Below, in pieces: positions 2,887 through 55,725 of a stretch of DNA of 64,000 nt. The notes under the pieces were generated by a model that saw only the letters and a program-made list of their open reading frames with translations, searched no databases and was not told the DNA's origin. The position numbers and the translations under genes were made by a program. Each line of letters opens with the position of its first letter. Positions within the stretch are counted from its first letter, which is position 1. The stretch is from Patescibacteria group bacterium (GTDB taxonomy: Bacteria > Patescibacteriota > Patescibacteriia > Patescibacteriales > JBAZCA01): the NCBI GenBank assembly GCA_041661505.1, contig JBAZUF010000005.1, forward strand, positions 3,532 through 67,531, given 5' to 3'.

Positions 2887-3097
2887 ATGCGTTTTGCATT
2901 TATCTTGCCGAAATCGATCGTATTCCGGCAAAACAGGTTAGTTAATTTTTCTCGACCTTTTTTCTAAAATTTAATATATAAATTATTTATTTTTTATCTT
3001 TTCAATTTTCCTCCGCGCGTCCAGTTTCTTCTTTGCATCCTTCCTTCATGCGTGCGTCCGGCATCTGCCGTCTTTGCCTTTCCGCCCTTTTGCCTAA

Positions 3098-4536: not shown

Positions 4537-4604
4537 TATTTTTATAAGCTCTAGAATATATTTTATGATTTATTTTTTATTCGCTCCCAGGCTTGTTTAA
4601 ATCT

Positions 4605-4644
4605 TTCCAAAACAAACAAAATCCCTTTAAACATAAGGGATTTT
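4605..4644 (-). terminator. rho-independent terminator downstream of the O-antigen-ligase-family gene
   Basis: Perfect 10-bp stem AAAATCCCTT / AAGGGATTTT (4618-4627 / 4635-4644) with a 7-nt loop. On the minus strand it is followed by TGTTTGTTTTGG. Confidence 0.6.
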
Positions 4645-6201: not shown

Positions 6202-6230
6202 ATATTTAGTATTGTATTATCATCCTATTA

Positions 6231-7208
6231 TCAAATTCTATAGCCATTATTCAGCCTTTCAACCGTCCTTTTCCATTCCATCTGATAAATCCTCCGCCGG
6301 TCGTTAACGTGGAGCTTAATAAGGCTGTCGTTAGCCACCACTTCACTCCCCATATTGAGCTTCTCCCTAATTCCTAAAGGAAACATTTTTCTTTGTATTC
6401 CCCTTGAGAAGGGCTCTGCCCAAAACAGCATGCCCCCGATCAATTTTCCGATAACCATCCCGGCTAAACCAAGTTCGACTCTCCTTTCTTCGTGGAGCTC
6501 AATCGGCTGCCAATTGGGAATAGTTTTTTTTATCCAGCCGTTTGATTTTATTAATTTTAAATACGCGCCGCCCCTTTCGTAGAGCGGAACCAGTCCGGCC
6601 ATCCAGTAATAAAAATACATATCGTTTTCGATAAAATATTTATTTAAGTCCAGGCAATTTTCAGCGGCGAAAAAGCTTAAGCAAATTTTATCTTTTACGT
6701 CCTCTTTTTTCGGCCGGAGATTCAAGGCCATGGTAACGAGGTTTAATAAAAGCCGGGTAGTCCAAATCTTTCCCGGCCGGACGATTACAAAAAAATCTAT
6801 GTCGCCTTCCAGTTTAAGATTGTGGGATCCGATAATATTCCCCACCCCGGCCATCCTTATCCAGGGAACCAGCTTGAAAATCTTTATTACTTTTTTCGCT
6901 TTTTTTATTTTATCGCCGCTATGGCTAAACCGCCTAAGCCTTTCCTCAACTATCGCCTCCCGGCCGGATAGATAATAAAAGCCGTCCTTAAAATCCACGA
7001 TTTTCCTGCTGTTCAAAATTTTTGTACAATGTAAAATAGCCGATATACTGCTATAAGTCAAAAATTCGCTGCCTGCCCGCTCGGGCCAATAGAGATATTT
7101 TTTTATCTCCATTAAAGTCAAAGGGTGGTCGAATATGTCAAAAAAAGCAATCGTTTTTAAGATTGCTCCTTTTAACTCTTCCTGGATGGCTTTTTCGATT
7201 AGGTCCAT
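6231..7208 (-). CDS. hypothetical protein (possible minimal nucleotidyltransferase fold)
   Basis: 325-aa intact ORF. The only motif I recognise is GVGNIIGSHNLKLEGDIDFFVIV, which resembles the G[SG]-x(9-13)-DxD signature of pol-beta-type nucleotidyltransferases. The functional call is weak. Confidence 0.5.
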   Translation of the reverse strand: MDLIEKAIQEELKGAILKTIAFFDIFDHPLTLMEIKKYLYWPERAGSEFLTYSSISAILHCTKILNSRKIVDFKDGFYYLSGREAIVEERLRRFSHSGDKIKKAKKVIKIFKLVPWIRMAGVGNIIGSHNLKLEGDIDFFVIVRPGKIWTTRLLLNLVTMALNLRPKKEDVKDKICLSFFAAENCLDLNKYFIENDMYFYYWMAGLVPLYERGGAYLKLIKSNGWIKKTIPNWQPIELHEERRVELGLAGMVIGKLIGGMLFWAEPFSRGIQRKMFPLGIREKLNMGSEVVANDSLIKLHVNDRRRIYQMEWKRTVERLNNGYRI

Positions 7209-7305: not shown

Positions 7306-8421
7306 TCATTCGTCCTTGGGTTTTTCAATCTGCACCACCTGGGCCCGGGGCTTGCCTTCGATTATTTTAGCCACGTCTTTATCGATTTTACCGAACTCGC
7401 GGTAGGCGCTGTTATAGTGGCTAACAGTTACCTTCATGCTGGCGCCGAGCTTTTTCATAAACTCCTCATAAGACAGGATATGGCGGGATAGCTTCTCAAC
7501 GTTGTGCCTTATCGTCTTGGCCGACTCTTCAATCTGCAAAGCCCGGAGCCCCTGCAATACAGTCTGCAAATAAGCCAGAAACGAGGTCGGCGATACTATT
7601 ATTACCTTCTTATCGCAAAACGCGTATTCGATCAAATCCCGGGTATTAATCTTGATCGCCCCGACTTTATTGACCAAAAGGTCGTAAAATATGGCTTCAG
7701 ACGGTATGAACATGAAAGCGAAGTCGAGCGTTTTCTCTCCCGGCTTTACGTACTTGGAGGTTTCGTCAATCCGGTCTTTTAAATCCTGCTTGAATAATTT
7801 TTCGAGCTTTTCCTTTTCTGCCGGATCACTGCAGTTTAATATTCGCTCGTAATTTTCCAAAGAAAATTTCGAATCAACCGGAATAATCTTATCGCCGACA
7901 AAAACTACCGCGTCAACAATCGACCCGTCTTTGAATTTATATTGCATTTCGTAGGAGTTGGGCGGAAGGACGTTTTTCAATGTTTCTTCCAGAAAATACT
8001 CGCCTAGCACTCCCCGCTGTTTCGGATTCTTTAGTATGTCCTGGAGGCTTTGCAATTGGGCGGAAAAATTAATTACCTGCTTATTGGTCTCATCAAGCTT
8101 GGTAAGCTTTTCCGTTACATCGGAAATCAGCTTGGCTGAATGATTGGCCATTGCCTGGGCGGTGCGCATGGTTTGGCCGAGCTGGTCCTGGGTGGAGCGG
8201 AATTGGGACTGGGTAACGCGGTGGGTTTCGGCGAGCTTGTCGTCCAAAGCCCGGCGCATATCCTTGTTCTGGTCGTTTAGCATGTTGAGGCGCTCCATCA
8301 TGGCAATCATCTTCTCGTCCATCAAACCGCCCGCCCTGTCTTTCTTTCTCATTAAAAGAAAAATTACTCCGATGATGCCGAAGCACAATAATGCCAGTAA
8401 TAAAATTATAATCCCCTCCAT
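7306..8421 (-). CDS. rmuC: DNA recombination protein RmuC
   Basis: N-terminal TM helix, a long coiled coil, then the RmuC core: QRGVLGEYFLEETL..., VDAVVF..IPVDSKF..., FAFMFIPSEAIF, VIIVSPTSFLAYL. I moved the start to ATG 8421 (MEGIIILLLALL) because the candidate promoter lies inside the longer track ORF. Confidence 0.85.
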   Translation of the reverse strand: MEGIIILLLALLCFGIIGVIFLLMRKKDRAGGLMDEKMIAMMERLNMLNDQNKDMRRALDDKLAETHRVTQSQFRSTQDQLGQTMRTAQAMANHSAKLISDVTEKLTKLDETNKQVINFSAQLQSLQDILKNPKQRGVLGEYFLEETLKNVLPPNSYEMQYKFKDGSIVDAVVFVGDKIIPVDSKFSLENYERILNCSDPAEKEKLEKLFKQDLKDRIDETSKYVKPGEKTLDFAFMFIPSEAIFYDLLVNKVGAIKINTRDLIEYAFCDKKVIIVSPTSFLAYLQTVLQGLRALQIEESAKTIRHNVEKLSRHILSYEEFMKKLGASMKVTVSHYNSAYREFGKIDKDVAKIIEGKPRAQVVQIEKPKDE

Positions 8422-11501: not shown

Positions 11502-11996
11502 TTACCCGGCGGCCGCGAAGGCGCGAATCGCGCCCTTGGCCGTCTCCAGGAGGCTGGACGGCTTCACATCCAAGCTGTAGCCGATAACGCAAAGAGTGAT
11601 GGCCGCCGCCCAGTACACTTTGGTGGCACTCACTTCAGCGTTGCCGATGACAGTCTGGAGTACAAAAAATGCTACCAGACTCCCGGCGCCGACGATGGCG
11701 CTCACCGTCCTTGGGTCAGTGCCGAGCGAAACGGCCTCGTACTGCGCCGCATTTCCGACGTAGCAGAAAGCTGCGGCCAGGAGAAAAGGTACGATACAGC
11801 CGGCAAAATCATAATCAAATACCGGATTCACGAATTTGCCGAAAAAAAATTTCAGAGCCCAAAAGGTTCCCATCATGCCCAGCGTATCGCCCACCGGAAT
11901 TCCTTTGCGGGTCAAATAGCACATAACTATGCCCATTCCCGCGTAGGAAAGCGCCGAGGCGATGCTTAACCCCTTGCCGATTCCTATGATTTCCAC
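11502..11996 (-). CDS. small integral membrane protein, family not recognised
   Basis: 164 aa with 4-5 hydrophobic helices. The GTG start at 11996 is preceded by a strong SD (CCGGAGGGAGAGGAAAC-GTG). The sequence looks more GC-rich than its neighbours by eye. Confidence 0.7.
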   Translation of the reverse strand: MEIIGIGKGLSIASALSYAGMGIVMCYLTRKGIPVGDTLGMMGTFWALKFFFGKFVNPVFDYDFAGCIVPFLLAAAFCYVGNAAQYEAVSLGTDPRTVSAIVGAGSLVAFFVLQTVIGNAEVSATKVYWAAAITLCVIGYSLDVKPSSLLETAKGAIRAFAAAG

Positions 11997-12170
11997 GTTT
12001 CCTCTCCCTCCGGATCAAAGCTGGCATTGCACCAGCCAATAAAAAAACACGGCCATTTCCCTCCTGGCCACCTTGGCGGTTTTGTGTTTTTTTTCGGAAA
12101 GGACCTACCCGCTTCCAAAAAATTTAAAAGAGCGTTCCCTGGCCATACCAGCCCCTTTCTTTTGGCCAAA
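11997..12170 (-). promoter_or_regulatory. structured GC-rich 5' leader with an internal terminator-like hairpin + U7 (candidate attenuator or unclassified riboswitch)
   Basis: The minus strand reads ..UUUGGCCAAAAGAAAGGGGCUGGUAUGGCCAGGGAACGC..GGAAGCGGGUAGGUCCUUUCCGAAAAAAAACACAAAACCGCCAAGGUGGCCAGGAGGGAAAUGGCCGUGUUUUUUUAUUGGCUGGUGCAAUGCCAGCUUUGAUCCGGAGGGAGAGGAAACGUG. It contains two GGCCA..UGGCC hairpins, a GAAAGG/CCUUUC pairing, a U7 run (12047-12041) 45 nt before the start codon, and a GCUGG..CCAGC hairpin. Confidence 0.4.
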
Positions 12171-14074: not shown

Positions 14075-16036
14075 TCATCTTCCGCTTATTATCAACTGCC
14101 CCTCTTTAATAATATTTTCTTTATCCAGGCCGTCCTGGACTGACCAGCCGACAAACTTCTCCAATAACTTTTTCTTTTTCCCGCTTTCCATCAGTTCCGG
14201 CTGGCTCAATTTAGAGCTCATAGGCAAAAATTCAATTTGCAGTTTATCCGGCGCCCAGCCGATTGAAAGCGCTAACTCTTCCTGGGTGTCTTCGGAAAAG
14301 TACTGGTCAAAGACGAAATTGCCGAGCGAGTAAAAAATCGGCTTTCCTTTATAAATTTCCATTCCCTGCATTACGTGCGGATGGTGTCCGATTATTATAT
14401 CGGCGCCGGAATCGATTAGCGCCTGGCCGGTATTTTTTTGGCTGGAATTATTATTATGCTGGTATTCTGCTCCCCAATGGATGTTAACAATTACCAGATC
14501 AGTTTCTTTTTTCAATTTTTCCACGGCCTCCCGGGCTTTTTCCAGGCTGAAATTTTTATAAACCATGCTAAAGCCCGCCAGGCCGATCTTTTTCCCGCCC
14601 TTTTCCACGATTACGCTTGAGCAATCGCCAATTTGGGCGTCTTTACAGCCGGAAAAATCAAACCCGAGAGCTTTCAAATTTTCTCTCGTTTCCATTATAC
14701 CACGCTCCCCTTGATCGGAAAAATGATTGTTGGCTAAATTGAAAAAATTGAAATTGTATTTTTTCAAGCTCTTGATGAGATCCGGAGAAAAGGCGAAATC
14801 ATAACTATTGGCGGGCGGATAATGCGCGCCCAAATCGGTTACGGCTCCTTCCAAGTTGGCGGACACCAGGTCTTTTCCGCTAAAAATATTTTCTCCGCCT
14901 TCGTCCGGTTTTATGAGTTTTGCAAAAGGATAATCGGCGCCTTTGGATTTAATTTTTTCACCCACGTGCCGGTCAAGCATCAAATCGCCGAAAAATAGAA
15001 GCCTTAAACTTTCTTTAACGCCTTTCATACTGCCTTCATCCCCGCGTTCATTTTCTCTTCCGTCCGCATCGCTCGCCCCGCTCTCCCCTTTCCCGCCCGC
15101 CGCAAACACTCCGGTTACGTAGCTGGTCGCGTTTTTTATTTCCGGCTTGCCCGACAATAAAGCCGAATTAGAATTATTGAACAAATTAAAATTTATTGCG
15201 CCTTTTAATTCCGCGTATCTCGCGAGAGTATAAATCGACCCGGGCGAATCCAGTTTCAGGCTATAGATTTTTTCACAGTCGAGATTTTCCAAAGCCCCGA
15301 TGCTTTCCCGGTCGTTTTTCATTGCCGTTTCACTGTCGGCGTTATGGGTAAAATCTACGCTCGCGATAATAAGAATTTTTTTCTTTTTGGAAATTTCATA
15401 AAGCGCCCGGGCCAGGCTTTCGGCTTCCTCCTTTTTCAATCCCGGCCTTAAAACCAAGGGGAGAAATTTAGCCTTGGGGAAAACTTTTTTTATAAAAGCC
15501 GTTTCTCCGTAAATTGCGTGCTCCTTGTCAAAAATCCCTTCGTCCGGCACGGCGATCTTCTTCAAAGCCAATTCTTCTATAATTCCCTGGTCCGCTTCTA
15601 AGTCTCCATAAGGCGTCTTCCAGCTGGCTTCCGAGGTTATTATCCTTCCTTCGCCCGCCCCGAAATGATTGGGGCCCAAAAGCACGATTGTCTCGTATTC
15701 ATCGCCCGAGAAAGCCGAATAAAAATCCGCGATTAAATCCGCGGCTAAAAGATGGTGCGGAATAACCCCGCCGGCAATTTCTTTTTCTAAAAAATCTTTC
15801 TTTCGGTCCAGCCGGGAAAAGCTAAATGCCTGATCATAAAATTTTTTATCGCCAGGCTTTGATTCGTGCCAAACTTGATTCTTTTTTTGGGAAATGCCGG
15901 CCAGTAGTTTTGACCTTGCGCCCGCCACATCCGCGATAAAGCCAGCCGCTCCCGCGCCTAAAACTAAAATAAATAGGCCTGCAATAAAGAGGCCTATTAT
16001 TAAATATTTCTTCTTGTCAATTTCGGACGCTTCCAT
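14075..16036 (-). CDS. membrane-anchored fusion of a Memo/AmmeMemoRadiSam-B-like domain and a CapA (PGA_cap) metallophosphatase-like domain
   Basis: N-terminal TM (YLIIGLFIAGLFILVLGAGAAGFI). The Memo-like half has GGVIPHHLLAADLI..IVLLGPNHF..ASVDFTH. After a Gly/Glu/Asp linker, the CapA-like half has FFGDLMLDR, NLANNHFSDQGERG, VNIHWGAEY, GHHPHVMQG and FYSLGNFVFDQ. Confidence 0.75.
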   Translation of the reverse strand: MEASEIDKKKYLIIGLFIAGLFILVLGAGAAGFIADVAGARSKLLAGISQKKNQVWHESKPGDKKFYDQAFSFSRLDRKKDFLEKEIAGGVIPHHLLAADLIADFYSAFSGDEYETIVLLGPNHFGAGEGRIITSEASWKTPYGDLEADQGIIEELALKKIAVPDEGIFDKEHAIYGETAFIKKVFPKAKFLPLVLRPGLKKEEAESLARALYEISKKKKILIIASVDFTHNADSETAMKNDRESIGALENLDCEKIYSLKLDSPGSIYTLARYAELKGAINFNLFNNSNSALLSGKPEIKNATSYVTGVFAAGGKGESGASDADGRENERGDEGSMKGVKESLRLLFFGDLMLDRHVGEKIKSKGADYPFAKLIKPDEGGENIFSGKDLVSANLEGAVTDLGAHYPPANSYDFAFSPDLIKSLKKYNFNFFNLANNHFSDQGERGIMETRENLKALGFDFSGCKDAQIGDCSSVIVEKGGKKIGLAGFSMVYKNFSLEKAREAVEKLKKETDLVIVNIHWGAEYQHNNNSSQKNTGQALIDSGADIIIGHHPHVMQGMEIYKGKPIFYSLGNFVFDQYFSEDTQEELALSIGWAPDKLQIEFLPMSSKLSQPELMESGKKKKLLEKFVGWSVQDGLDKENIIKEGQLIISGR

Positions 16037-24611: not shown

Positions 24612-25010
24612 CTATCTTCTATCAATTGCCTCATTCACCAGCCGGTCAGCTTCCTTATTCTTTTCTCTTGGCACATGCGTAAACTTAACCTTTTTAAAGC
24701 CCAAAGTCAAGTTGTTGATTTTCAAAAATAGCGGCGCCAAATCGGAGTTTTTTACTTTATATTCGCGTTTTATTTGCTTTACTACGAGTTCAGAATCAAG
24801 ATAAAAATCCAGTTCTTCTGCCTTGCAGGTCTTAGCTTTTTCCAAAGCGGCGATTACTGCTTTGTATTCCGCCTGATTATTAGTCGCTTCGCCGATATAT
24901 TCGGACACGGTGAACACCACCTTAGCATCTTCATCATAAGCGATCGCCCCAATCCCCGCCGGCCCCGGATTCCCCCTTGCCCCTCCGTCGGTAAATATTT
25001 TTAGCTTCAT
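24612..25010 (-). CDS. rnhA: ribonuclease HI
   Basis: Contains MKLKIFTDGGARGNPGPAGIG..NNQAEYKAVIAALE..LDSELVVKQI..HVPREKNKEADRLVNEA, with the DEDD catalytic residues in the canonical RNase H context. I prefer the start at 25010. The track start 25031 lies inside the outer arm of hairpin element A. Confidence 0.9.
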   Translation of the reverse strand: MKLKIFTDGGARGNPGPAGIGAIAYDEDAKVVFTVSEYIGEATNNQAEYKAVIAALEKAKTCKAEELDFYLDSELVVKQIKREYKVKNSDLAPLFLKINNLTLGFKKVKFTHVPREKNKEADRLVNEAIDRR

Positions 25011-25022
25011 AATTTTATATTG

Positions 25023-25210
25023 TTTTGTCATTTTATTTATGTGCGAGCCATTGAGAAAATTTAGTATTATTTTTTGTACAATTGAGGCAATAAATTTTCA
25101 CTGTTTGATCCGCCCCGTGTCAACGGGGCGGAGAGTTTGAAAATTTGTCCGTAAATTGTGCAAAAAATCTAAATTTTTTCGCAGGCGAGTGAATAAATAA
25201 AATGACAAAA
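25023..25210. repeat. long imperfect palindrome / hairpin element A (188 nt) with conserved apical core
   Basis: The outer arms 25023-25040 TTTTGTCATTTTATTTAT and 25193-25210 ATAAATAAAATGACAAAA are perfectly complementary (18 bp). Inner pairings include ATTTTTTGTACAATT/AATTGTGCAAAAAAT and AAATTTTC/GAAAATTT. The apex is CTGTTTGAT-CCGCCCCG-TGTCAA-CGGGGCGG-AGAGTT (25101-25137). Confidence 0.85.
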
Positions 25211-33830: not shown

Positions 33831-35528
33831 TTAAATCCCCCGCGCTTCGCTTGAATCGTCGGTTTCCACCTTGCCCCAGTTAACCCGGCGCCGGAATGAA
33901 TTCCAAAAAGAAAAAAATTCTTCGCTTCTTAAAATATAACATAAAATTAAAAACGCGATTATCCCGCCTAAGCCGGCCACCGCGCCCTGGATCAAGACGC
34001 CTAAAAAAGTGCTCATGCTGATATACGGCCAGACTAGAGATTTAACCGCCTGAATGCTCGCGCCGGAACCGGCGGCGGCCAATGAGAGCTTCGCGGTTGA
34101 TATGAAGATTCTTTTTCCATCCAGGCTTCCTACCTCCATCCTTAATAAAATCCAGAGAAGAATAAAATTAATGATGCTGGAAATGGAAAAGGCCAAAGCC
34201 AGCCCGGCAACGCCCAAAGGCAGGCAGGCCGAGACCCCGCCAAAGGGGCTTAATAGCACTTTGCAAATTATTATTTTCGGCAGCCAAAGAGACAAGCCGA
34301 TATTAATAAACACGGAAAAAAGTCCGATATAAAACGGCGTCCGGCTGTCGTGGCGCGCGTAAAACACCCGGATTAAAAGCGGAATCAGCGCCTGGGCCCA
34401 TAAACCAATGGTAAAGAAGGCCAGCGTATCAATAGTCATGATCGTATCTTCCCAATCAAAATGCCCGGAGCCTAAAATTACGCGGACAATTTGCGCGCGC
34501 AGGGCTAAAAGCAAGACGGTTGAAGGGATAATAAAAAACAAAATTTGCCTAAGCGCTGAAGAAAAGCTGGCCTTTAATTTTTCCCGGTCAAAGGCGTTTA
34601 GGGCCAGGGTCGGAAAAGCGGCGACCGCGTAAGAGATGCCGAAAATTCCAATAGGAAAAGACTGCAAATTATTAGCCAGGTTGAATACCGAAAGCGAGCC
34701 GCTTTTTAAGGTTGAGGCGATTATGGTCAAAACGACTAAATTTATCTGGGCAATCGCCAAAGACATGGTTCTTGGGCCCATCATGCGGATAATTTTTTTA
34801 AACCCCGCGTCCTTCCAGTCGAGCAGACGCTGATAACGATAACCCAGGTTAAAGACCGACGGCAGCTGGACCAGCATATGCATAAGCGCCCCCAAAACTA
34901 CGCCTATAGCCAGGCCGTAAACTCCGAATCGCGGAGTCAAAAATAACGCGCCTAAAATAATTCCGACATTGTAAAAAATCGGCGCCAGCGAATATACGAA
35001 GAAGCGCTTGAACGATTGGAGAATCCCGCCCAAGACGCTGGAGATCCCTAAAAAAAGCGGGGACAAGAACATAATTTGGGTCAAGCCGACGGTAAGCTTT
35101 AATTTTTCCTGGCTAAATCCGGGGGTAATAACTTTCATGATCCAAGGCGCGGCGATTATTCCTATCGCCGTTAAAGCCAGCAAGCTTAATACAATAAAAT
35201 TTAAAATATTATTGGAAAGCTCCCAGGCCTCCTTGTATTTTTTATACCGGTCATTTTCTTCTTTGGCTTTCTTTTTTATAAGTCCGGTGAAGACAGGGAT
35301 GAATCCGGCTGACAGTGCGCCTAAAACAAGCAGGTTAAATATCAGGTCGGGAATCCGAAAGGCGGCATAGTAAATATCCAGGGTATCGCCGGCGCCGAAT
35401 TCTCCGGCCAAAATCCGGTCGCGGAAAATTCCCAAAAGCCGGCTTACCAAAGAAAAAAAAGCGACCAGGGCGGCGGCCATGGCGATTGAATCTATTTTTC
35501 CGTTAATAATTTTTTGGATGCGCCTCAT
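33831..35528 (-). CDS. murJ: lipid II flippase MurJ (MviN)
   Basis: 565 aa with about 14 TM helices. The N-terminus ..SRLLGIFRDRILAGEFGAG..LDIYYAAFRIPDLIFNLLV.GALSAGFIPVF is the canonical MurJ opening. Confidence 0.9.
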   Translation of the reverse strand: MRRIQKIINGKIDSIAMAAALVAFFSLVSRLLGIFRDRILAGEFGAGDTLDIYYAAFRIPDLIFNLLVLGALSAGFIPVFTGLIKKKAKEENDRYKKYKEAWELSNNILNFIVLSLLALTAIGIIAAPWIMKVITPGFSQEKLKLTVGLTQIMFLSPLFLGISSVLGGILQSFKRFFVYSLAPIFYNVGIILGALFLTPRFGVYGLAIGVVLGALMHMLVQLPSVFNLGYRYQRLLDWKDAGFKKIIRMMGPRTMSLAIAQINLVVLTIIASTLKSGSLSVFNLANNLQSFPIGIFGISYAVAAFPTLALNAFDREKLKASFSSALRQILFFIIPSTVLLLALRAQIVRVILGSGHFDWEDTIMTIDTLAFFTIGLWAQALIPLLIRVFYARHDSRTPFYIGLFSVFINIGLSLWLPKIIICKVLLSPFGGVSACLPLGVAGLALAFSISSIINFILLWILLRMEVGSLDGKRIFISTAKLSLAAAGSGASIQAVKSLVWPYISMSTFLGVLIQGAVAGLGGIIAFLILCYILRSEEFFSFWNSFRRRVNWGKVETDDSSEARGI

Positions 35529-35611: not shown

Positions 35612-36844
35612 TTATACTCTATTATTATATACGAGATTGGAAAAAATATCATCCATTTTCGAGGCAATTATATCCCAATCATATTTTTCTCTGACCAATT
35701 TTTTACCGTTTGCGGCCAGCTTTTGCTTTAAAGTTTCATCATTTAAGATCCTAACCAGGCTTTCCTTAATGCTTTGAGGATCGCCAGGACGGCAAAAAAC
35801 TCCGGTTTCGCCGTCTTTTAAGAAATCCACTATTCCTCCGACCGGAGTGGCGACGACCGGCAAACCGGCGGCCATAGCCTCCAAAAATACATTTCCCAGC
35901 CCTTCTGTGAGCGAAGGCCTGATGAAAATATCGCTTATCCAGAGATATTTCGGCACTTCATCATTAGGGACCTTGCCGATAAAAATTACTTTGTTTTCTA
36001 ATCCGGATTCGCGCACCATCGATTTTAAGATCTTTTCCAGTTCGCCGGTTCCGATGATTAACAGTTTAAAGCTAGAGTTTTCCCCGGCCTCCGAATCCGC
36101 TAACAATTTGATTCCCCTGATCAAGTCCTCCAAGCCGTTTTTTTTAACCAGCCGGGATACGGTGGTTATAATTTTTTCATCTTTCAATATTCCCAGCGAG
36201 GCTTTCAGATTATATATAATTTCCAATTCTTCTGAAAGGGGCGGCGGATTTTTCCTTTCGAATTTATTAATATCTACCCCATTCGGGACGATTTTTATAT
36301 CGCATCCCGCGCCGCTGTTTTTTGCCCGCTTCCCCAGGTCGTTGGATATCGCTGTTATAGAGTCTGCCTTTTTAATTACTAGCCGGTGAAAAGGCTGTAC
36401 AAAAATTTTGAACAGTGTATCGCTTCCCAAAGAGTAGCGCCTTAAGTGCTCTTCAGAATCCCCTTCCTGCATATTTAGAAGCATTATCTTTTTGGGAAAA
36501 ATCAGCTTAAAAAAAGAAGCGGTAATTCCGCCCTGGCTAGCCATAACCGCCCAAATGATTTCGTAGCTATTTTTGCGGTTTAGTCTTACTGCTTTGATAA
36601 GTCCTAAAAAAGGCAGAAGAAATTTATCGAACCGATTGCCAAAACCTACCCGGAAAACGCTAACATTTTCTATCCTTTCCCGGCGCCGGCATTTTCTATC
36701 CAGCCGGGAGGTTATGAGGTCAAACCCATACTTAGGCTGGCCGTTTTTAACTTTAGCCGCGAGATGATTAGTAATTTCCCTTACCGCTAATTCCGCCCCT
36801 CCAATAAACGGCAAATAGGCAGTGGAAAAAATTAATATTCTCAT
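35612..36844 (-). CDS. glycosyltransferase family 4 (GT-B)
   Basis: N-terminus MRILIFSTAY.P.IGGAE. The C-terminal half has EGLGNVFLEAMAAGLPVVATPVGG, the E-x7-E region typical of GT4. Confidence 0.85.
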   Translation of the reverse strand: MRILIFSTAYLPFIGGAELAVREITNHLAAKVKNGQPKYGFDLITSRLDRKCRRRERIENVSVFRVGFGNRFDKFLLPFLGLIKAVRLNRKNSYEIIWAVMASQGGITASFFKLIFPKKIMLLNMQEGDSEEHLRRYSLGSDTLFKIFVQPFHRLVIKKADSITAISNDLGKRAKNSGAGCDIKIVPNGVDINKFERKNPPPLSEELEIIYNLKASLGILKDEKIITTVSRLVKKNGLEDLIRGIKLLADSEAGENSSFKLLIIGTGELEKILKSMVRESGLENKVIFIGKVPNDEVPKYLWISDIFIRPSLTEGLGNVFLEAMAAGLPVVATPVGGIVDFLKDGETGVFCRPGDPQSIKESLVRILNDETLKQKLAANGKKLVREKYDWDIIASKMDDIFSNLVYNNRV

Positions 36845-39699: not shown

Positions 39700-39719
39700 A
39701 TTTTTACTTTGTTAAATAA

Positions 39720-39884
39720 GCTTGGACAATATATGCGATTCCATTATGATTTTTAGCGCAAATTATCCGTTAAAAATAGCCGCTGTTTGACCCGCCCTTC
39801 AGGGCGGGGAGTTCGGCTATTTTAGGATAATTTGCGCGTGACAAAGGCAAAAATCATCCATGGATGAGCGTATATTGTCCAAGC
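39720..39884. repeat. long imperfect palindrome / hairpin element B (165 nt) with conserved apical core
   Basis: Pairings: GCTTGGACAATATA/TATATTGTCCAAGC (14 bp), GCGCAAATTATCC/GGATAATTTGCGC and AAAATAGCCG/CGGCTATTTT. The apex is CTGTTTGAC-CCGCCC-TTCA-GGGCGG-GGAGTT (39783-39813). Confidence 0.85.
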
Positions 39885-39931
39885 TGATAAAATTGCAATT
39901 TTAAACACTATACCTTATTATTAAATAAAGT

Positions 39932-49467: not shown

Positions 49468-49487
49468 ATCTAATATTTATCTAAGTA

Positions 49488-49619
49488 AATCCAATATCTT
49501 CTGAAGGGGTTCTTTTGGCTAAAATTGCTTGGTTCGCCCGGGGCGAAATTTTGGCCAAAAGCAGAGTAAAAATTTTCGCTGGAAAAATTTTTATGTCCCT
49601 GAAGAAGATATTGGATTTC
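49488..49619. repeat. intercistronic long hairpin element C (132 nt), structurally similar to A/B/D but lacking their core motif
   Basis: Pairings: AAATCCAATATCTTCT (49488-49503) with AGAAGATATTGGATTT (49604-49619), 16 bp perfect, and CTTTTGGCTAAAATT with AATTTTGGCCAAAAG. The apex is TTCGCCCGGGGCGAA. The right arm carries an extra AAAAATTTT..AAAAATTTTT branch. Confidence 0.7.
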
Positions 49620-49620
49620 C

Positions 49621-50412
49621 TTATCGCTTTCTCGTCCACATGCGCCTCCCCATCCTCAATTTATCCATAGAGGTGCTTTCTTCTTCGCGGATTATTTTCC
49701 CGGTCAAAGCTAAAAATGCCTCTTCCAAAGATTCGGTCTTGGTTTGTTTCTTTAAATCATCAGCCGTTCCAGTGGCGATAATTTTCCCGTGGTCGATAAT
49801 CGCGATCCGCTCCGCCATCTTTTCCGCTTCTTCCATGTAGTGGGTAGTAAAAAACACGGTGGTTTTCTCTTTTTTATTCAGTTCTTTCAGATAGTTCCAC
49901 ATGTGATTCCGGGTTTGCGGATCCAGGCCTAAGGTCGGCTCGTCTAAAAATATAATTTTCGGGTGGTGCAGAAGCCCGCGGGCGATTTCCAGGCGCCTTT
50001 TCATTCCGCCGGAGAACTCCTTAACAAAACTGTTGCGCCGATCGTCCAGTTCTACGAATTTCAAAAGCTCGTCAATTTTTTTCCGCCTTTCAATCTTCGG
50101 CACGTCGTAAAGAATTCCGTGGAATTCAAGATTTTCAAAAGCCGTCAGCTCGTCGTCCAGGCTTGGGTCCTGAAAAATAATACCAATATTCCTTCGGACA
50201 TTACTTGAGTCCTTGGCCACGTTAAATCCCGCCACATCCATTTCCCCTTTAGTGGGATTTAAAAGCGTCGTAAGCATCTTGATGGTCGTTGATTTGCCGG
50301 CGCCGTTCGGGCCTAAAAAGGCGAACACTTCCCCCTCTTTGACTGAAAAGGAAATATTATCGACAGCCGTAAAATCGTCAAATTTTTTGGTTAAATTTTC
50401 TACTTTTATCAT
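49621..50412 (-). CDS. ABC transporter ATP-binding protein (DrrA/ABC-2 type)
   Basis: Walker A GPNGAGKST, Q-loop, signature FSGGMKRRLEIA, Walker B IIFLDEPT and H-loop TTHYMEE. Confidence 0.93.
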   Translation of the reverse strand: MIKVENLTKKFDDFTAVDNISFSVKEGEVFAFLGPNGAGKSTTIKMLTTLLNPTKGEMDVAGFNVAKDSSNVRRNIGIIFQDPSLDDELTAFENLEFHGILYDVPKIERRKKIDELLKFVELDDRRNSFVKEFSGGMKRRLEIARGLLHHPKIIFLDEPTLGLDPQTRNHMWNYLKELNKKEKTTVFFTTHYMEEAEKMAERIAIIDHGKIIATGTADDLKKQTKTESLEEAFLALTGKIIREEESTSMDKLRMGRRMWTRKR

Positions 50413-50605
50413 AATATTAGTGTATAAAAAAACACCCTGAAACCGGATTGAATAATCCTATTATAACTTATACGCATAATAATGCAAAAGCTTTAAGCTG
50501 CCATTAAGGCAAGCGGCTCTTAACTTGAACTTAACATCATTGTAAGAAAATGGTATTAACAGCATCTATATAATAAACCCAGCATTAACTTATTAATTAA
50601 TCACT

Positions 50606-51019
50606 ATGAACAACAAAATTTTAATTTCCGCGGTTATTATCGTGATAATTATTGTTGGCGGGCTGGCCTATATCTATAGCCAGCCGACAAATGACGCCGC
50701 GAATAACCCGCCCTCTAATTCGACGGATAACACCGGTGGAAATGTCCAAAAAGTAACAGTGTCAGGAACTGACTTTAGATTCTCGCCCAGTGAAATCAGG
50801 GTTAAGAACGGCCAGCAGGTAAAGATAACCTTTACCAACAACGGACAATTTCCGCACGACTGGAAAGTTGATGAGTTCAGCGCAGTTACCCCGACGGCCC
50901 AGCCGGGAGAAACAACGGAAGTAACTTTCACGCCTAACCAAACCGGAACCTTCCAGTATTATTGCGCCGTTCCCGGCCATAAAGATAGGGGCATGGTCGG
51001 AAATTTTATAGTAGAATAA
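50606..51019 (+). CDS. membrane-anchored cupredoxin (plastocyanin/azurin-like type-1 copper protein)
   Basis: N-terminal TM helix. Type-1 Cu ligand pattern: His in FPHDW, then YYCAVPGHKDRGMVGNF (Cys-x4-His-x4-Met). Confidence 0.8.
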   Translation: MNNKILISAVIIVIIIVGGLAYIYSQPTNDAANNPPSNSTDNTGGNVQKVTVSGTDFRFSPSEIRVKNGQQVKITFTNNGQFPHDWKVDEFSAVTPTAQPGETTEVTFTPNQTGTFQYYCAVPGHKDRGMVGNFIVE

Positions 51020-51559
51020 TTATTTAGCCGGATTATCTTGCGTTGGCGCGGGGTTGCCCTGGACTTCGACTGAGCCTGTTGCCGCGTTTTCCGGGCGGAT
51101 TTGCACTAGCTGGGCGATAATACTGCCGTCCGAGTTGGCGGTTCCCGTAATCATCACATTTTTTCCGACGGCCATGTCATCTTTAGTGCCGTCAACTGAT
51201 TTGGAAACCGTAGTAGTGTCGGAATAATAGATTGTTTTTGATCCCGTAGCGTTGGATGACCCATTTGCACCGCTGTTCGCGTTTCCGCCATTGCCGCCTA
51301 ACTGGATAGTAATACTCTTATCATCTTTTTTTATAATCTCGCCGGCCACAAATCCGCCGCTATTTCTCATAATCCGGTTGGCGCCGCCAGTCCCCGAGCC
51401 AGAACCGGCGCCTTGGCCAAACGTGGCAAAACCGCCGCCATTCCTTTGAAAATTGGCAAACGGGCTTTTACTGGCCTGGTATTTCATTCCGCCGTAAAAA
51501 CCTGCACCGGCAAACACTATTGCCGCGACAATAGTGATAATAATTGATTTTTTGTCCAT
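51020..51559 (-). CDS. Gly/Asn/Ser-rich membrane-anchored protein, unknown function
   Basis: I place the start at ATG 51559 (MDKKSIIITIVAAIVFAGAGFYGG). The track start 51661 runs into hairpin element D and adds a non-hydrophobic extension. It has low-complexity G/N/S stretches and a small beta-rich C-terminal domain. Confidence 0.65.
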   Translation of the reverse strand: MDKKSIIITIVAAIVFAGAGFYGGMKYQASKSPFANFQRNGGGFATFGQGAGSGSGTGGANRIMRNSGGFVAGEIIKKDDKSITIQLGGNGGNANSGANGSSNATGSKTIYYSDTTTVSKSVDGTKDDMAVGKNVMITGTANSDGSIIAQLVQIRPENAATGSVEVQGNPAPTQDNPAK

Positions 51560-51568
51560 AGAATTTAT

Positions 51569-51746
51569 ATTTCTAATTATATTATGAGTGAAGCATTGAA
51601 AAATTATGGTTTGTAACGGCGTAAAAATTTTGCTACAAAATTTTACTGTTTGACCCCGCATTTGCGGGGGAGTTTAAAATTTTGTTAAAAATTTTTGCGC
51701 TGTTTCCTTAATTTTTCACCTGCAAACGAATAATATAATTAGAAAT
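51569..51746. repeat. long imperfect palindrome / hairpin element D (178 nt) with conserved apical core
   Basis: Pairings: ATTTCTAATTATATTAT (51569-51585) with ATAATATAATTAGAAAT (51730-51746), 17 bp perfect, plus TTGAAAAATTATGG/CCTTAATTTTTCAC-type pairing and GGCGTAAAAATTTT/AAAATTTTTGCGC. The apex is CTGTTTGAC-CCCGC-ATTT-GCGGG-GGAGTT (51646-51674). Confidence 0.85.
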
Positions 51747-51771
51747 TTAGCTTAACATATTAATTACACTC

Positions 51772-52998
51772 TTACTCATATCTCAAGGCCTCAATCGGAT
51801 TCAGTTTGGCGGCGCGCCGGGCCGGATAATAGCCGAAAATAATCCCGATGGCAGCCGAAACGCCGAAAGCCAAAAGAACGGAAGACAGAGAAATCGACGT
51901 GGCGATGCTCGCGAATTTAGAAACGATCGCGGCTAAAAGCCAGCCTAAAATAATCCCAAAAGCCCCGCCGATAAAAGTAAGCATAATAGCTTCGGCTAAA
52001 AATTGATTGGAAATATCGTTCCTTTTGGCGCCAATGGCTTTGCGCAGTCCTATTTCCCGGGTTCGCTCGGTAACGTTAGTAAGCATCATGTTCATAATGC
52101 CGATTCCGCCCACAATCAAGGAAATTCCGGCAATAGCGGCTAAAAGCATAGTAAAAGTTCCGGTTACCGAGGATGCCGTTGCCACGATGTCGGCCTGGTT
52201 TAAAATCTGGAAATCAGCATTAGCCGCGTTAGATATTTTATGGCGCTGGAGCAAGAGATCATTAACCTGATTTTGCACTGCGGTTAAACCGGACTGATCC
52301 TGGGATTGGATATAAATTGTACTAATGTACTCGCTTCCGGATAAATAGCCTTTGGCGGTCGTTAATGGCACAAAAATCATGTCGTCCTGCGAACCGAACC
52401 CTGATCCGCCCTTGGACTTAGAAACGCCGATAACTTTAAAATTAACTTGTTTAATGGCAACAGTTTTGCCAAGGGCGTCAGCTCCGGTGCCGAATAAGTC
52501 GTCTCTCGCTGTCGGTCCTAAAATCGCCACTTTGCTATTAGACCTTAAGTCAGTTTCGGTAAAAAATTGTCCCTGGTCTATCTCGAGATTCCTGACCGCC
52601 GGATATTCAGCTACAGTGCCCACCACCTGGGTATTGGTGTTAGTGCCCTTGGCGGTTATCTGATAGCGGCCAGTCACTTCCGGCTCAACGGCTTTGACGC
52701 CGGTAACTTCAGTCTTGATGGCCTCCGCGTCTTCGGTAGTTAGGGTAGTGGCCGAACCCCGGCCGGCCGATACCCCGCCGCCGCCGACAGAACGCTGGAA
52801 GCCCGGCATAACGATTAAAAGATTGGAGCCGATGGATTCTATGCTGGCTTCAATCGATTTCTGGGCCCCCTGGCCGATCGCGACCATGGCGATTACCGAA
52901 CCAATGCCGATAATTATCCCTAAAATCGTTAAGCCTGACCGGGCTTTGTTGGCGCGGATAGCGAAAAATGTCTCCTGGAATAAATCATTTACTAGCAT
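51772..52998 (-). CDS. MacB/FtsX-family ABC transporter permease
   Basis: 408 aa. TM1, a large extracytoplasmic MacB_PCD domain, then a C-terminal FtsX 3-TM bundle (..ERTREIGLRKAIGA...I..QFL.EA..). Confidence 0.9.
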   Translation of the reverse strand: MLVNDLFQETFFAIRANKARSGLTILGIIIGIGSVIAMVAIGQGAQKSIEASIESIGSNLLIVMPGFQRSVGGGGVSAGRGSATTLTTEDAEAIKTEVTGVKAVEPEVTGRYQITAKGTNTNTQVVGTVAEYPAVRNLEIDQGQFFTETDLRSNSKVAILGPTARDDLFGTGADALGKTVAIKQVNFKVIGVSKSKGGSGFGSQDDMIFVPLTTAKGYLSGSEYISTIYIQSQDQSGLTAVQNQVNDLLLQRHKISNAANADFQILNQADIVATASSVTGTFTMLLAAIAGISLIVGGIGIMNMMLTNVTERTREIGLRKAIGAKRNDISNQFLAEAIMLTFIGGAFGIILGWLLAAIVSKFASIATSISLSSVLLAFGVSAAIGIIFGYYPARRAAKLNPIEALRYE

Positions 52999-53003
52999 AA
53001 TTC

Positions 53004-53696
53004 CTATTGGGCGTTATGAGATTTTTTATCTTCGACGATCACTCCGTCCCGGATGGAAATTATCCGGTTGGCGTGCGCCGCCACTTCCCGCTCATGGGTA
53101 ATTAAAATAATAGTGTGGCCTTCCCTTTCATTTAGTTCCCGGAAAGTTTTTAATACTATTTCGCCGGTCTTGGTGTCAAGATTTCCGGTCGGCTCATCGG
53201 CTAAAATTATGGATGGGTTATTGACTAGCGCTCGGGCAATGGCTACCCTTTGCATTTGCCCGCCGGATAACTGGTTGGTTAAATGCGACCAGCGGTTTTC
53301 TTCGAGGCCGGCCGAAAGCAAAGCCTTTTTTGCCATCTCTTCCCTTTTATCGCCGGGCACTTCGGCGTAGACTAATGGCAGTATGACGTTCCGCAGAACG
53401 GTTGATCGCGCGAGCAAATTAAACGCTTGGAAAACAAAGCCGATTTTATTTTTCCTAATCTCCGCCAGTTCCTCGTCAGTGAGTTTTGATACATCCTGGC
53501 CTTCTAAAAGATATTGGCCGTTGGTTGGGGTATCCAAAGCGCCGATAATATGCATGATTGTGGATTTTCCCGAACCCGAAGGGCCGGTAATGGCAATGAA
53601 TTCACCTTTGTCAATCTTAAACGACACATCTTTTAATACGTGCGTCTCCACATCGCCGGTATTGTATATTTTATTGATTTTTACGCATTCCAGCAT
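53004..53696 (-). CDS. ABC transporter ATP-binding protein (MacB/LolD-type)
   Basis: Contains GPSGSGKST, FVFQ.FNL, LSGGQMQRVAIARAL, ILADEPTGNLD and ITHE. Confidence 0.95.
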   Translation of the reverse strand: MLECVKINKIYNTGDVETHVLKDVSFKIDKGEFIAITGPSGSGKSTIMHIIGALDTPTNGQYLLEGQDVSKLTDEELAEIRKNKIGFVFQAFNLLARSTVLRNVILPLVYAEVPGDKREEMAKKALLSAGLEENRWSHLTNQLSGGQMQRVAIARALVNNPSIILADEPTGNLDTKTGEIVLKTFRELNEREGHTIILITHEREVAAHANRIISIRDGVIVEDKKSHNAQ

Positions 53697-53706
53697 ATTA
53701 GATCTA

Positions 53707-55725
53707 TTATCTCGTCATCCGAACATTGCTGCCGCCTCCGCCCAATATTCCGAATCCGCTCTGCTGGCCGGAAGTGGTAGTTTTAGCCGCCGTACCGGTA
53801 ATAGTTTTGGTAATAATTAAATCCCCTTCCGAAAGCCCTTCGGTAATTTCCGTATTAGCATCATTCGATAAGCCGGCCTGAACGTATTTTATTTCCGGCG
53901 TGTCGCTTGTTGTAATTCCACTGCTCCCGGAAACTTCTGTCGCACCTTTTAAAATTTCCACGTAGCTTAATCCGTTCGTGTCGGTTTTAATTGCCGTGTT
54001 CGGCACTAATAAAGCGTCCAATTTTTGGTCAGTGGTTATGGAGGCCGAAACGCTCATCTCCGGCTTGATCCGCGCGTCCTGGGTATCCAGGGCAATTTGG
54101 ACTGAATAATTAACCACTCCCGAAGTTACGGTCCCCACCCCGTCAACTTCCACTACGCTTCCGGTAATCTCCAGCCCGTCGATGGCATTAAAGGTTAAGG
54201 TAGCTTTTTGGCCAGTCTTAACTTTGGCCGCATCCACCTCGTTTAATGAAACTGTGGCCATTTGCTTATTGGTCACTATAGTCACTAAAGGGGTGGATTG
54301 GGATAACGAGGACAGGTCGCCCGGGTTTTGGTAAACCTTGGCCACCACGCCGTCAATCGGCGAAGTAATCGTCGCTTCTTTTAAATTTTCCAAAGCCGTT
54401 TGATAGCCGTTTCGCGCCTGGGTAATCTGGATTTTATAGCTCGCGATATCTACCGGCCGGGGAGCGGCCATTTTTAAATCATACGAAGCCTTTTGGCTTT
54501 CGTAAGAAAGTTTTTTGGTAGCGACGTCCGCCTGGGCAGACTGGATATTTTTGGCATTGTCTGACTGGGCCTGGGTTAAATTGCTCTTGGCCGTATCCAA
54601 AGCGGTTTTAGCGCTACCAACGCTTCCAGACTGGGAAATATCGGAAGATGTCTGGCTTAATTTGGCCGAGGCAATACTTTGCAAGGCTGTCTGGGCGGCG
54701 GAAATATTGGATGTAGCGGAGCTCTCCTGCGAAGTGACGGAAGTTTTTAGACTGGTAAGCGTCGCTTCCGGCAGATCGGCGGAAATTACCGAATTTATTA
54801 AAACCGTATAAACGTCCTGATCCATTTTTCTGGCATTTTGCAAAACCGCCGTAGAATCGGATAAAAGCGCTTCAATCTGGCTGTCTGTCCAATTGTTGGC
54901 GTTAACATTATAATCGGCTTGAAATTTATTGAAAGAATTGCGGGCGGCCTCGTAAGAATTCTGGGCAGTAACCAAGGTTTGGGGATTTACCGCTCCGAGC
55001 GAATTTTTATAGGTATTGGAAATATTGTTATAATCATTCATCCCAAGAATGCCGTCCATCAGAACTAAAGATGAACGAACCGCGGAATAAACGGAATTAA
55101 TCGTGGTTTTCGCGTCGACATAAGCATTATCCAAGTCAGAGTTCTTTGATACGCCGGTTATGCCTTGAGTGGCGACGGCATTATCATAATCCGCCTGCGC
55201 TTTAGTTAGGCTCGACTGGGTTTTGGCTAAATTTTGGTCAGCCGTAGTTTTCGCATTAGCTAAATTAGTTTGCGATTGGTCATAAGACAGTTTGGCCGAC
55301 TGGACGGATTTTAGGGCTACGGCCGCGTCCTGCGAAGTCGGCCCGGCCATTTTAAGATTATAGCTCGCCACCGCGGAATCGTAGGAGGCTTTGGCGTCTT
55401 TTAACGACTTCTGCAAGTCCTTGGAATCCAGCGTAGCCAAGACATCGCCAGTCTTAACGTTTTGGCCGGCTTTGACGTTGACAGTAAGAATTTTCGCGGA
55501 AATCTGGGGCTTTAAATCAAGCTGGTTAGTGGCCGTCACCTGGCCAGTGCCGGAAACCGAAGTTATTATCGCGCCCTTTTCCACTTTGCCGATAACATAA
55601 GCCGGCGGGGCGGCTGACGATTTATTGGAACCGAAATAATAATATCCTCCGCCGCCTATTACTATAACGATTATGGCCGTGATAATTTTATGCTGTTTTA
55701 TAATTGCCGGAATTTTGATTTTCAT
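53707..55725 (-). CDS. HlyD/MacA-family periplasmic adaptor (membrane fusion protein) with an unusually long alpha-helical hairpin
   Basis: N-terminal TM. Lipoyl half-motifs are ..ISAKILTVNVKAGQNVKTGDVLATLD and, near the end of the hairpin, ITSPIDGVVAKV. A beta-barrel and membrane-proximal domain follow. Between the lipoyl halves lie ~350 aa of S/T/A/Q/N-rich coiled coil bracketed by ASYNLKMAGP and ASYDLKMAAP. Confidence 0.85.
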   Translation of the reverse strand: MKIKIPAIIKQHKIITAIIVIVIGGGGYYYFGSNKSSAAPPAYVIGKVEKGAIITSVSGTGQVTATNQLDLKPQISAKILTVNVKAGQNVKTGDVLATLDSKDLQKSLKDAKASYDSAVASYNLKMAGPTSQDAAVALKSVQSAKLSYDQSQTNLANAKTTADQNLAKTQSSLTKAQADYDNAVATQGITGVSKNSDLDNAYVDAKTTINSVYSAVRSSLVLMDGILGMNDYNNISNTYKNSLGAVNPQTLVTAQNSYEAARNSFNKFQADYNVNANNWTDSQIEALLSDSTAVLQNARKMDQDVYTVLINSVISADLPEATLTSLKTSVTSQESSATSNISAAQTALQSIASAKLSQTSSDISQSGSVGSAKTALDTAKSNLTQAQSDNAKNIQSAQADVATKKLSYESQKASYDLKMAAPRPVDIASYKIQITQARNGYQTALENLKEATITSPIDGVVAKVYQNPGDLSSLSQSTPLVTIVTNKQMATVSLNEVDAAKVKTGQKATLTFNAIDGLEITGSVVEVDGVGTVTSGVVNYSVQIALDTQDARIKPEMSVSASITTDQKLDALLVPNTAIKTDTNGLSYVEILKGATEVSGSSGITTSDTPEIKYVQAGLSNDANTEITEGLSEGDLIITKTITGTAAKTTTSGQQSGFGILGGGGSNVRMTR

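Follow-up and report, generated by a model that had tools for sequence, protein, structure and literature searches.

A rod-shaped hairpin element at a macB junction of a Patescibacteria genome is one copy of a dispersed family with a conserved apical loop

Element D and other hairpins in the window

The DNA analysed here is a stretch of 64,000 nucleotides (the window) from a Patescibacteria group bacterium (GenBank assembly GCA_041661505.1, contig JBAZUF010000005.1, positions 3,532 to 67,531 of the forward strand). Two genes on its minus strand, encoding a MacB-like ABC permease (51772-52998, the upstream gene of the junction) and a Gly-rich, DUF5666-like membrane-anchored protein of 179 aa (51020-51559), are separated by a hairpin referred to as element D (51569-51746). 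We report that D is a rod-shaped imperfect palindrome, that it belongs to a family which is defined by a covarying apical module and found in at least six bacterial phyla, and that it was inserted into a junction where most relatives lack it.

D is 178 nt long and its plus strand is the strand that carries the family motif. The 17-bp perfect terminal helix is formed by the arms ATTTCTAATTATATTAT (51569-51585) and ATAATATAATTAGAAAT (51730-51746), and pairing reaches 51566-51749 such that the outermost arms (51566-51585/51730-51749) comprise 20 nt with 95% complementarity. Nested within these are the helices 51597-51609/51706-51718, 51615-51631/51688-51704 and 51624-51645/51675-51696, the last including the strands 5' (51635-51645) and 3' (51675-51685) of the apical loop, which pair with each other and covary throughout the family. 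The apex reads CTGTTTGA-CCCCGC-ATTT-GCGGGG-GAGTT, where CTGTTTGA (51646-51653) and GAGTT (51670-51674) are the two sides of the family-defining 8x5 internal loop and enclose a GC hairpin (51654-51669), which differs in sequence and length between copies with its pairing retained. Purine-rich loops were read from the alignments as AGUGAAGC and GCAAACGAA.

The 212-nt spacer between the two genes was folded as RNA and as DNA. The plus strand RNA gives a single rod of -71.8 kcal/mol (z = -9.0); the minus strand RNA gives -60.8 kcal/mol (z = -8.6) and the DNA parameters -43.7 kcal/mol (z = -8.4), and in each case none of 200 shuffled sequences folded as well. An independent JGI contig agrees with the window from 49620 to 53727 with two mismatches, and a Logan contig from another run is identical over 51646-53594 and breaks off at the first base of the D apex motif. 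Thus, the hairpin breaks short-read assemblies, yet it is no artefact because both contigs carry the same sequence, and hairpin D is real. The terminal helix, the nested inner helices and the apex described in the initial annotation are all present, and the distances given there, 25 nt from the stop codon of the macB-like gene (51772-51774) and 9 nt from the ATG at 51559, are also right.

There are exactly three occurrences of the motif CTGTTTGA-[GC hairpin]-GAGTT within the window (25101-25137, 39783-39813 and 51646-51674), always on the plus strand and always capping a long hairpin. The first two belong to element A (25023-25210, plus strand), located between recJ and the RNase HI gene, whose ATG at 25010 is 12 nt away, and to element B (39716-39888, plus strand), located in a divergent intergenic region and carrying a CGUUAA.../...UUAGG module that is common in other phyla. 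With a covariance model built from 55 family members (R1), B, D and A score 62.8, 58.3 (E about 3e-12) and 54.3 bits, respectively, and the next match in the window reaches 14 bits; across the covariance searches the E-value of D was about 1e-11 to 1e-12. The shared apex motif and these scores bear out the earlier grouping of D with A and B in one family. Over the whole rod, A and D share 70% identity, and B resembles A (69%) and D (67%) only across its inner 90-100 nt. The flanking genes are mutually unrelated: RNase HI and RecJ for A, a UDP-glucose-dehydrogenase-like protein and a glycosyltransferase for B, and the DUF5666-like protein and MacB for D.

The window has a fourth hairpin, C (49482-49623), a rod of 142 nt whose apex differs (GCUUGG / UUCGCC-CGG-GGCGAA) and whose G·U pair is again on the plus strand; it is not a member as judged by R1. 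It lies between the genes for an ABC ATPase and an ABC-2 permease, with its right arm reaching into the final codons of the ATPase open reading frame (ORF), and a JGI contig breaks exactly here. Additional inverted-repeat pairs with arms 200-350 nt apart are present at 6138-6399, 7586-7899, 11836-12100, 14507-14753, 34259-34660 and 36363-36617, some of them probably within genes.

The family outside the window

Genomes, one per GTDB species, were scanned with the pattern CTGTTTGAYCC-N6-24-GGRGAGTT and at least 120 genome loci matched; by our own arithmetic, random fillers would give a few hundred matches over the whole collection by chance. In most of the listed loci the filler contains a perfect stem-loop of variable sequence and length and is surrounded by a long nested hairpin. 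Searching 100 sources (99 listed loci and the window) with the covariance model resulted in 80 matches at E<1e-3.

The rods vary between 140 and 250 nt in length across the family, with an apical module of approximately 30 nt composed of a covarying 10-bp helix, the 8x5 internal loop CUGUUUGA/GAGUU and the GC hairpin. In the 10-bp helix 94.7% of the cells are paired, cells in which both partners changed number 364 vs 108 ± 11 in shuffles, and the covariation score is 0.845 compared with 0.20 for shuffled alignments and at most 0.23 with slid partners. Among hits found by the model only, three (L049:3846, L111:760 and L044:4582) keep both CUGUUUGA and GAGUU with changed closing pairs of the hairpin, and one (in L216) has the variant UUGUUUGA. 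Beneath the apical loop, many copies from different phyla, including B, carry 5'-CGUU-AA-[10 bp]...[10 bp]-AGCG-3', which in our reading of the alignments is repeated up to three times along the rod in some copies, e.g. L049. Purine-rich loops are common to the copies and are exemplified in L049 by AGUGAAGCG and GCGGAACGAA. When rods extended by approximately 55 nt on either side of the motif were subjected to RNAalifold, only the inner 17 pairs were recovered because the outer arms do not align. Element D shares the overall architecture, i.e. an intergenic rod of at least 140 nt that has the module and nested helices.

Members were found in isolates of the Bacteroidota (Flavobacterium undicola, F. 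zubiriense, Sphingobacterium nematocida, S. tabacisoli, Maribellus, Carboxylicivirga and Seramator), in metagenome-assembled genomes (MAGs) of Ignavibacteriota, Calditrichaceae (Calditrichota), Desulfobacterota/Thermodesulfobacteriota, Nitrospiraceae (Nitrospirota) and Elusimicrobia, and in Patescibacteria (Parcubacteria, Saccharibacteria, Moranbacteria, Peribacteria and Kazan); the hosts outside the Bacteroidota are mostly MAGs. The distribution is patchy and several genomes contribute two to seven loci each among the matches listed, with F. undicola alone accounting for seven. Pattern matches in Verrucomicrobiota (L009, L010, L054 and L118) lie inside a conserved coding gene (CTGTTTGATCCACCA...GGTGGAGAGTT) without the flanking helix, those in Rhodobacteraceae (L040 and L071) lie inside conserved coding regions, and neither group was counted as members.

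Some copies are found in larger or paired arrangements. In Flavobacterium (L004, L016, L053, L073, L094, L097 and L119 from F. undicola, L072 from F. zubiriense) a near-identical unit of 240-330 nt recurs in different contexts. Internal segments of 30 and 45 nt are optional in it, A-U/G-C pairs beside the loop are swapped in a compensatory manner, and an AT-rich hairpin, GTTTCTTTTTTGATCAAGCAAAAAAGAAA, trails. An Ignavibacteria MAG (L070) has copies at 3055-3294 and 6086-6305, 3 kb apart and with about 110 nt of downstream sequence in common, and one of the L070 copies is truncated on the 5' side of its own hairpin such that the outer 5' arm is missing. Another Ignavibacteria MAG (L044) has copies at 4582-4640 (plus) and 4841-4901 (minus), 200 nt apart on opposite strands. 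In a Flavobacterium MAG (L015) a Flavo-1 RNA (859-963; RF01705, 69 bits) was predicted approximately 140 nt downstream of the element; none was seen beside the F. undicola copy that was scanned.

Insertion at gene junctions, genomic context and strand

Relatives of MacB (61-73% identity) were present in 80 metagenome loci, and some 63 of these have the Gly-rich gene immediately downstream, mostly 20-120 nt away. The motif was present in none of these approximately 63 orthologous junctions, and the covariance model detected zero members over 470 kb of these related loci, compared with three in the 64-kb window. At the nearest junctions that are complete, three in number and with MacB 79-83% identical, the spacers measure 240-256 nt and are neither rods nor members. 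In two of them, L224 (2750-2947) and L225 (2732-2947), where MacB is 79-80% identical, an ORF of 65-71 aa is called in the place of D. On the contig with the nearest Gly-rich relative (82% identical) the ATG is preceded by 40 nt of sequence, and since these 40 nt (L222:1-40) resemble the terminal arm of D, the element is probably common to that one relative; the assembly of L222 probably broke inside the orthologous element. The initial annotation implied that D would be conserved at orthologous junctions, and this part does not stand: because the 63 or so junctions are without D, it represents a recent insertion and not a conserved operon regulator, even though the hairpin itself is real. The flanks left on either side of D, 9 and 25 nt, fit an earlier short spacer.

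Other long hairpins (-44 to -94 kcal/mol) follow macB in L138, L142, L144, L146, L166, L172, L178 and L186. On the opposite strand, those in L142 and L146 have a GC hairpin and then GAG; they were considered as reversed members and rejected, reaching at most 11 bits with the model. Hairpin elements seem to have landed at the macB junction repeatedly.

Comparable data were obtained for the other sites. At the recJ/RNase HI site, relatives with 81-82% RNase H identity have spacers of 10 and 59 nt, while the nearest relative (89%; L216:2700-3000, also L217) has a 300-nt spacer that holds a complete member at a distance of 9 nt from the ATG. This member, which carries the UUGUUUGA variant, is 78% identical to D and only 69% identical to its positional counterpart A, and what is left of an A-like 3' arm comes after it; the pattern therefore indicates repeated (nested) insertion or recombination between copies at one site. 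At the site of hairpin C the spacer between the ABC ATPase gene and its permease gene is 0-9 nt in four of five relatives, and hence C is an insertion too. A and C, like D, are lineage-specific.

Recognising D also bears on the gene model of the Gly-rich protein, for which the ORF list gives a start at 51661, i.e. within the D apex. The 34 codons between 51661 and 51559 are without counterpart in 63 homologous loci. Alignments of the homologues, which start with MNKK, MSKK or MKK, begin at the first Met of the 179-aa model (MDKK...), and any that extend upstream of this Met cross stop codons. The Prodigal-type gene calling of the JGI contig and the identical protein named by NCBI, WCW77_05340, likewise give 179 aa. 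The true start is accordingly the ATG at 51559, as the initial annotation had proposed, and the 34-codon extension is spurious. The N-terminus has a Lys-rich stretch followed by a hydrophobic anchor, and the Pfam link to DUF5666 is weak. A cupredoxin-like gene (50606-51019, plus strand) abuts the stop codon of the Gly-rich gene in a convergent arrangement with zero spacer.

No recurrent protein was detected within 3.5 kb of 98 copies using BLAST clustering and Pfam; among 86 nearest neighbours 140 Pfam families were matched, each at most three times. Nor did any transposase, reverse transcriptase or recombinase recur within the same distance of these copies, and neither transposase nor reverse transcriptase is among the best 25 of 73 Pfam families in the window. 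The orientation of the element relative to its neighbours is mixed (+|+ 19, +|- 14, -|- 12 and -|+ 7), and between co-directional neighbours 19 copies are sense and 12 antisense. Among similar copies, whether from other genomes or other loci, homology extends from about -60 to -100 through about +80 to +140 of the motif. No consistent target-site duplication was seen at A, B or D, where the flanks are AT-rich, or at the unit boundaries between genomes; some Bacteroidota copies carry GCCTTGA at either end, but this repeat belongs to the conserved element and is not a variable duplication. Thirteen pattern matches on viral contigs lack the flanking helix, score at most 21 bits and are non-members, and BLAST searches of phage and plasmid collections gave no family matches.

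The two strands of the element are not equivalent. The motif strand gives the more stable fold in 78 of 91 loci with a mean gain of 8.4 kcal/mol, and arm-to-arm alignments show 181 mismatches of the G·U type on the motif strand vs 108 on the opposite strand (p=2e-5), the corresponding numbers for A, B and D together being 10 vs 0. Of 74 copies, 27 have CGTTAA in the 5' arm and none has its exact complement in the 3' arm; since its partner is UUAGCG, a U·G wobble is conserved. Moreover, GAAGCG, AGCGAA and GCGAAG occur in both arms of the motif strand in 10-18 copies each, and in 0-2 on the other strand. Taken together, these asymmetries in stability, G·U pairs, wobble and purine blocks imply that the element functions as a single strand with a fixed polarity. 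It is the plus strand of the window that carries the motif, and at A and D this strand is antisense to the flanking genes.

With respect to transcription signals, the Flavobacterium unit has, in our reading of alignment and fold, a diverged upstream stretch with a Bacteroidetes-type promoter-like sequence (TTTG-N20-TAnnTTG) and a U-run after the rod, and this repeated unit also contains a second AT-rich hairpin. On the minus strand of the window, TTGAGA-18-TAATAT (51786-51757) at the end of macB matches at 9/12 positions, which is at the level expected by chance. The TATATT hexamer of the plus strand match that points into D (51544-51571) also stands against the 5' border of element A (25016-25021). 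When 51350-51950 was scanned for terminators, the apical hairpin, with the tails GAGUUUAA and UCAAACAG, came up on neither strand, and the asymmetry of T-runs over the family is weak (32 vs 20 of 68).

Comparison with known elements and interpretation

The rod family matches no Rfam family. At the gathering threshold Rfam 15 identified only a tRNA-Pro in the window, D at E up to 10 gave only miRNA-like long-hairpin noise, 18 family loci gave tRNAs and one Flavo-1 only, and L049 at E up to 10 gave nothing relevant. We found no description of the rod element family in full-text literature searches. FopS small RNAs (sRNAs) and TIGR-Tas arrays were considered as its identity and do not fit.

ERIC/IRU, Correia (NEMIS), RUP and YPAL are intergenic palindromic repeats of enterobacteria, neisseriae and streptococci. 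They resemble D in being imperfect palindromes of 100-200 bp that are non-coding, multi-copy and intergenic, often inside operons, in showing presence/absence polymorphism among relatives, and in that co-transcription as hairpins is possible. Repeats of the ERIC/Correia type do not extend beyond a single genus or family, have very similar copies and conserved termini, and in the case of Correia elements also a TA duplication. The rod family is different in that its termini and arms vary, its apex is constant and it spans the phyla listed above; by eye, no similarity to the published consensus sequences of these repeats was seen. D has other features of a MITE (a miniature transposable element with inverted repeats), i.e. 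terminal arms of 17-20 bp, a length of 178 nt and no credible ORF. However, its terminal inverted repeats are not a separate feature because the whole element is palindromic, and with termini that differ among A, B, D and genomes, and no transposase recurrent near 98 copies or present among the families listed for the window, no autonomous partner was found in these places.

Repetitive extragenic palindromic (REP) sequences and REPINs, mobilised by the RAYT transposases, are similar to the rod family in being hairpin-forming, strand-specific, recognised as single strands, intergenic and mostly without an adjacent partner gene. REPINs consist of two conserved REP 20-40-mers with a GTAG/CGTC tag at the arms and a poorly conserved spacer, whereas the rod family has a conserved centre and variable arms, and neither GTAG nor CGTC tags are present at the ends of A, B and D. 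Integron attC sites also keep structure over sequence, have one informative strand and carry extrahelical bases in a long imperfect hairpin. In attC sites the core sites R''/R' (RYYYAAC / GTTRRRY) are at the base, the tip is variable and the cassettes stand in arrays next to intI; in the rod family the tip is conserved, the base variable (for D ATTTCTAA.../...TTAGAAAT) and the copies are solitary between housekeeping genes.

As for RNA classes, multi-copy sRNAs and 6S RNA share with D the rod of approximately 180 nt, internal loops, covariation, G·U pairs, GA-rich loops and possible paralogues. However, no Rfam model, 6S included, gives a relevant match up to an E of 10, the 8x5 loop lacks the size needed to imitate an open promoter, and the element turns over faster at orthologous sites than expected for a housekeeping sRNA. 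TIGR-Tas guide RNAs with box C/D-like modules have been reported from bacteria of the candidate phyla radiation (PMC12045711). The rod family shows some likeness to K-turns and box C/D in that, by inspection of the sequence, ...UGA-[helix]-GAG... permits tandem G·A pairs beside a Watson-Crick helix, but its loop is 8x5 rather than a 3-nt bulge and there are no RUGAUGA/CUGA boxes, tandem array or nearby gene with a Tas/Nop domain.

The GC hairpin is without a U-run on either strand, as opposed to an intrinsic terminator, and the downstream genes (RNase HI, UDP-glucose-dehydrogenase-like and DUF5666-like) are unrelated and the orientation is mixed, which argues against a leader or riboswitch. 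A hammerhead core (CUGANGA...GAAA vs CUGUUUGA...GAGUU, with the invariant A6 and A14 lost), sarcin-ricin/loop E, 5S rRNA loop E-helix IV, domain IV of the signal recognition particle RNA, an anticodon loop and an IHF site were dropped on inspection, as were a sigma-70 promoter, for which the spacing varies, a Cas9 repeat/anti-repeat and attC.

Our preferred reading, held with moderate confidence, is that D represents a mobile, structured-RNA-like rod element with the apical loop as recognition site and the plus strand as functional strand, and without a conserved role in the operon. D, as one copy of the dispersed rod family, was inserted into a macB/Gly-rich spacer that is short in relatives. 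The element behaves as a mobile structured-RNA element because copies multiply in genomes and move between lineages, although the mechanism of spread is one that we infer. Its functional form would be the single-stranded fold of the motif strand, presumably RNA rather than single-stranded DNA and most likely a plus strand RNA antisense to the macB operon, in which case D would be transcribed in this genome. The invariant apical loop, with tandem G·A pairs by the capping helix, may serve as recognition site for a protein that binds there.

Several observations weigh against this reading. The invariance of CUGUUUGA and GAGUU is informative only in the four model-only hits, because the scan pattern fixed both. 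Homology between copies ends at the base of the rod and no promoter is conserved outside Flavobacterium; the plus strand promoter-like sequence leading into D (TTGATT-16-TATATT, 51544-51571) matches at 9/12 positions in a region where chance would give 1.3 such matches, and D and B have no U-run after the rod. No candidate for a binding protein or mobilising enzyme was found near the copies or among the window families listed. Furthermore, folded single-stranded DNA recombination sites also use G·T wobbles and unpaired purines, so the strand asymmetry alone is no proof of RNA.

The insertion dynamics are accounted for equally well if D is a non-autonomous DNA hairpin transposon of the MITE/REPIN type, whose folded single-stranded DNA is recognised and moved in trans by a transposase or recombinase with its gene elsewhere and whose RNA is incidental, and this we regard as the main, if rather unlikely, alternative. 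It agrees with the presence/absence polymorphism at three junctions in the window (D, A and C), with a patchy multi-copy spread in which this 64-kb window has three copies and the 470 kb from relatives none, and F. undicola seven listed loci, and with the hairpin itself being the conserved unit; L216, moreover, holds one and a half elements, L070 has its 5'-truncated copy, and the rod folds strongly under DNA parameters as well. The termini, which are the usual target of a transposase, are nevertheless the least conserved part of the element and the apex the most conserved, and the U·G wobble that is conserved, like the symmetric GA-rich loops, is a typical RNA feature. The lack of consistent target-site duplications, of a recurrent transposase, reverse transcriptase or recombinase in the searches above, and of copies on viral contigs, phage records and plasmids also speaks against a DNA transposon.

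D could instead be a cis element of the minus strand macB/Gly-rich mRNA, acting as terminator or attenuator, as RNase III or stability hairpin, or as translational gate, which we find improbable. The rod of the reverse complement is very stable, only 9-16 nt separate the ATG of a minus strand gene from the end of each window copy and of the copy in L216, the promoter-like TTGAGA-18-TAATAT is located just upstream on that strand, and Correia and ERIC elements act in cis in this way once inserted. On the other hand, the absence of D from the orthologous junctions means that the operon does not need it, the strand-specific features are on the strand antisense to the operon, the downstream genes are unrelated, and with no U-run after the GC hairpin on either strand the terminator scan was silent. 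Since the orientation is mixed and orthologues are without D, a cis role is not the family's reason for being; D may still affect the operon mRNA as a side effect. That D is a chance palindrome in an AT-rich spacer, or was created by the assembly, for instance as a chimeric inverted duplication, is hardly credible: short-read assemblies do break at such hairpins, but no shuffled spacer folded as well, two independent assemblies concur up to the apex, the model E-value is low as given above, and the module is also present in isolate genomes of several Bacteroidota.

Extending the mobile rod element reading to the whole family, it is tentatively conceivable, and we put this forward as speculation, that the family constitutes an uncatalogued, cross-phylum mobile rod RNA, viroid-like or similar to short interspersed nuclear elements, whose apical loop recruits a conserved host factor or a mobilising enzyme and which enters tiny spacers even in streamlined Patescibacteria. 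For the locus studied here, the macB/Gly-rich spacer is an invaded site and not the home of a conserved regulator. If the element is RNA, the family is a candidate for a new widespread RNA class with a putative protein partner; if it is a DNA element, it would be an unusual hairpin transposon in which the tip is conserved instead of the ends. Cultured carriers exist in Flavobacterium, Maribellus and Sphingobacterium. Either way, the family accounts for assembly breaks and spurious ORFs in the compact genomes of Patescibacteria.

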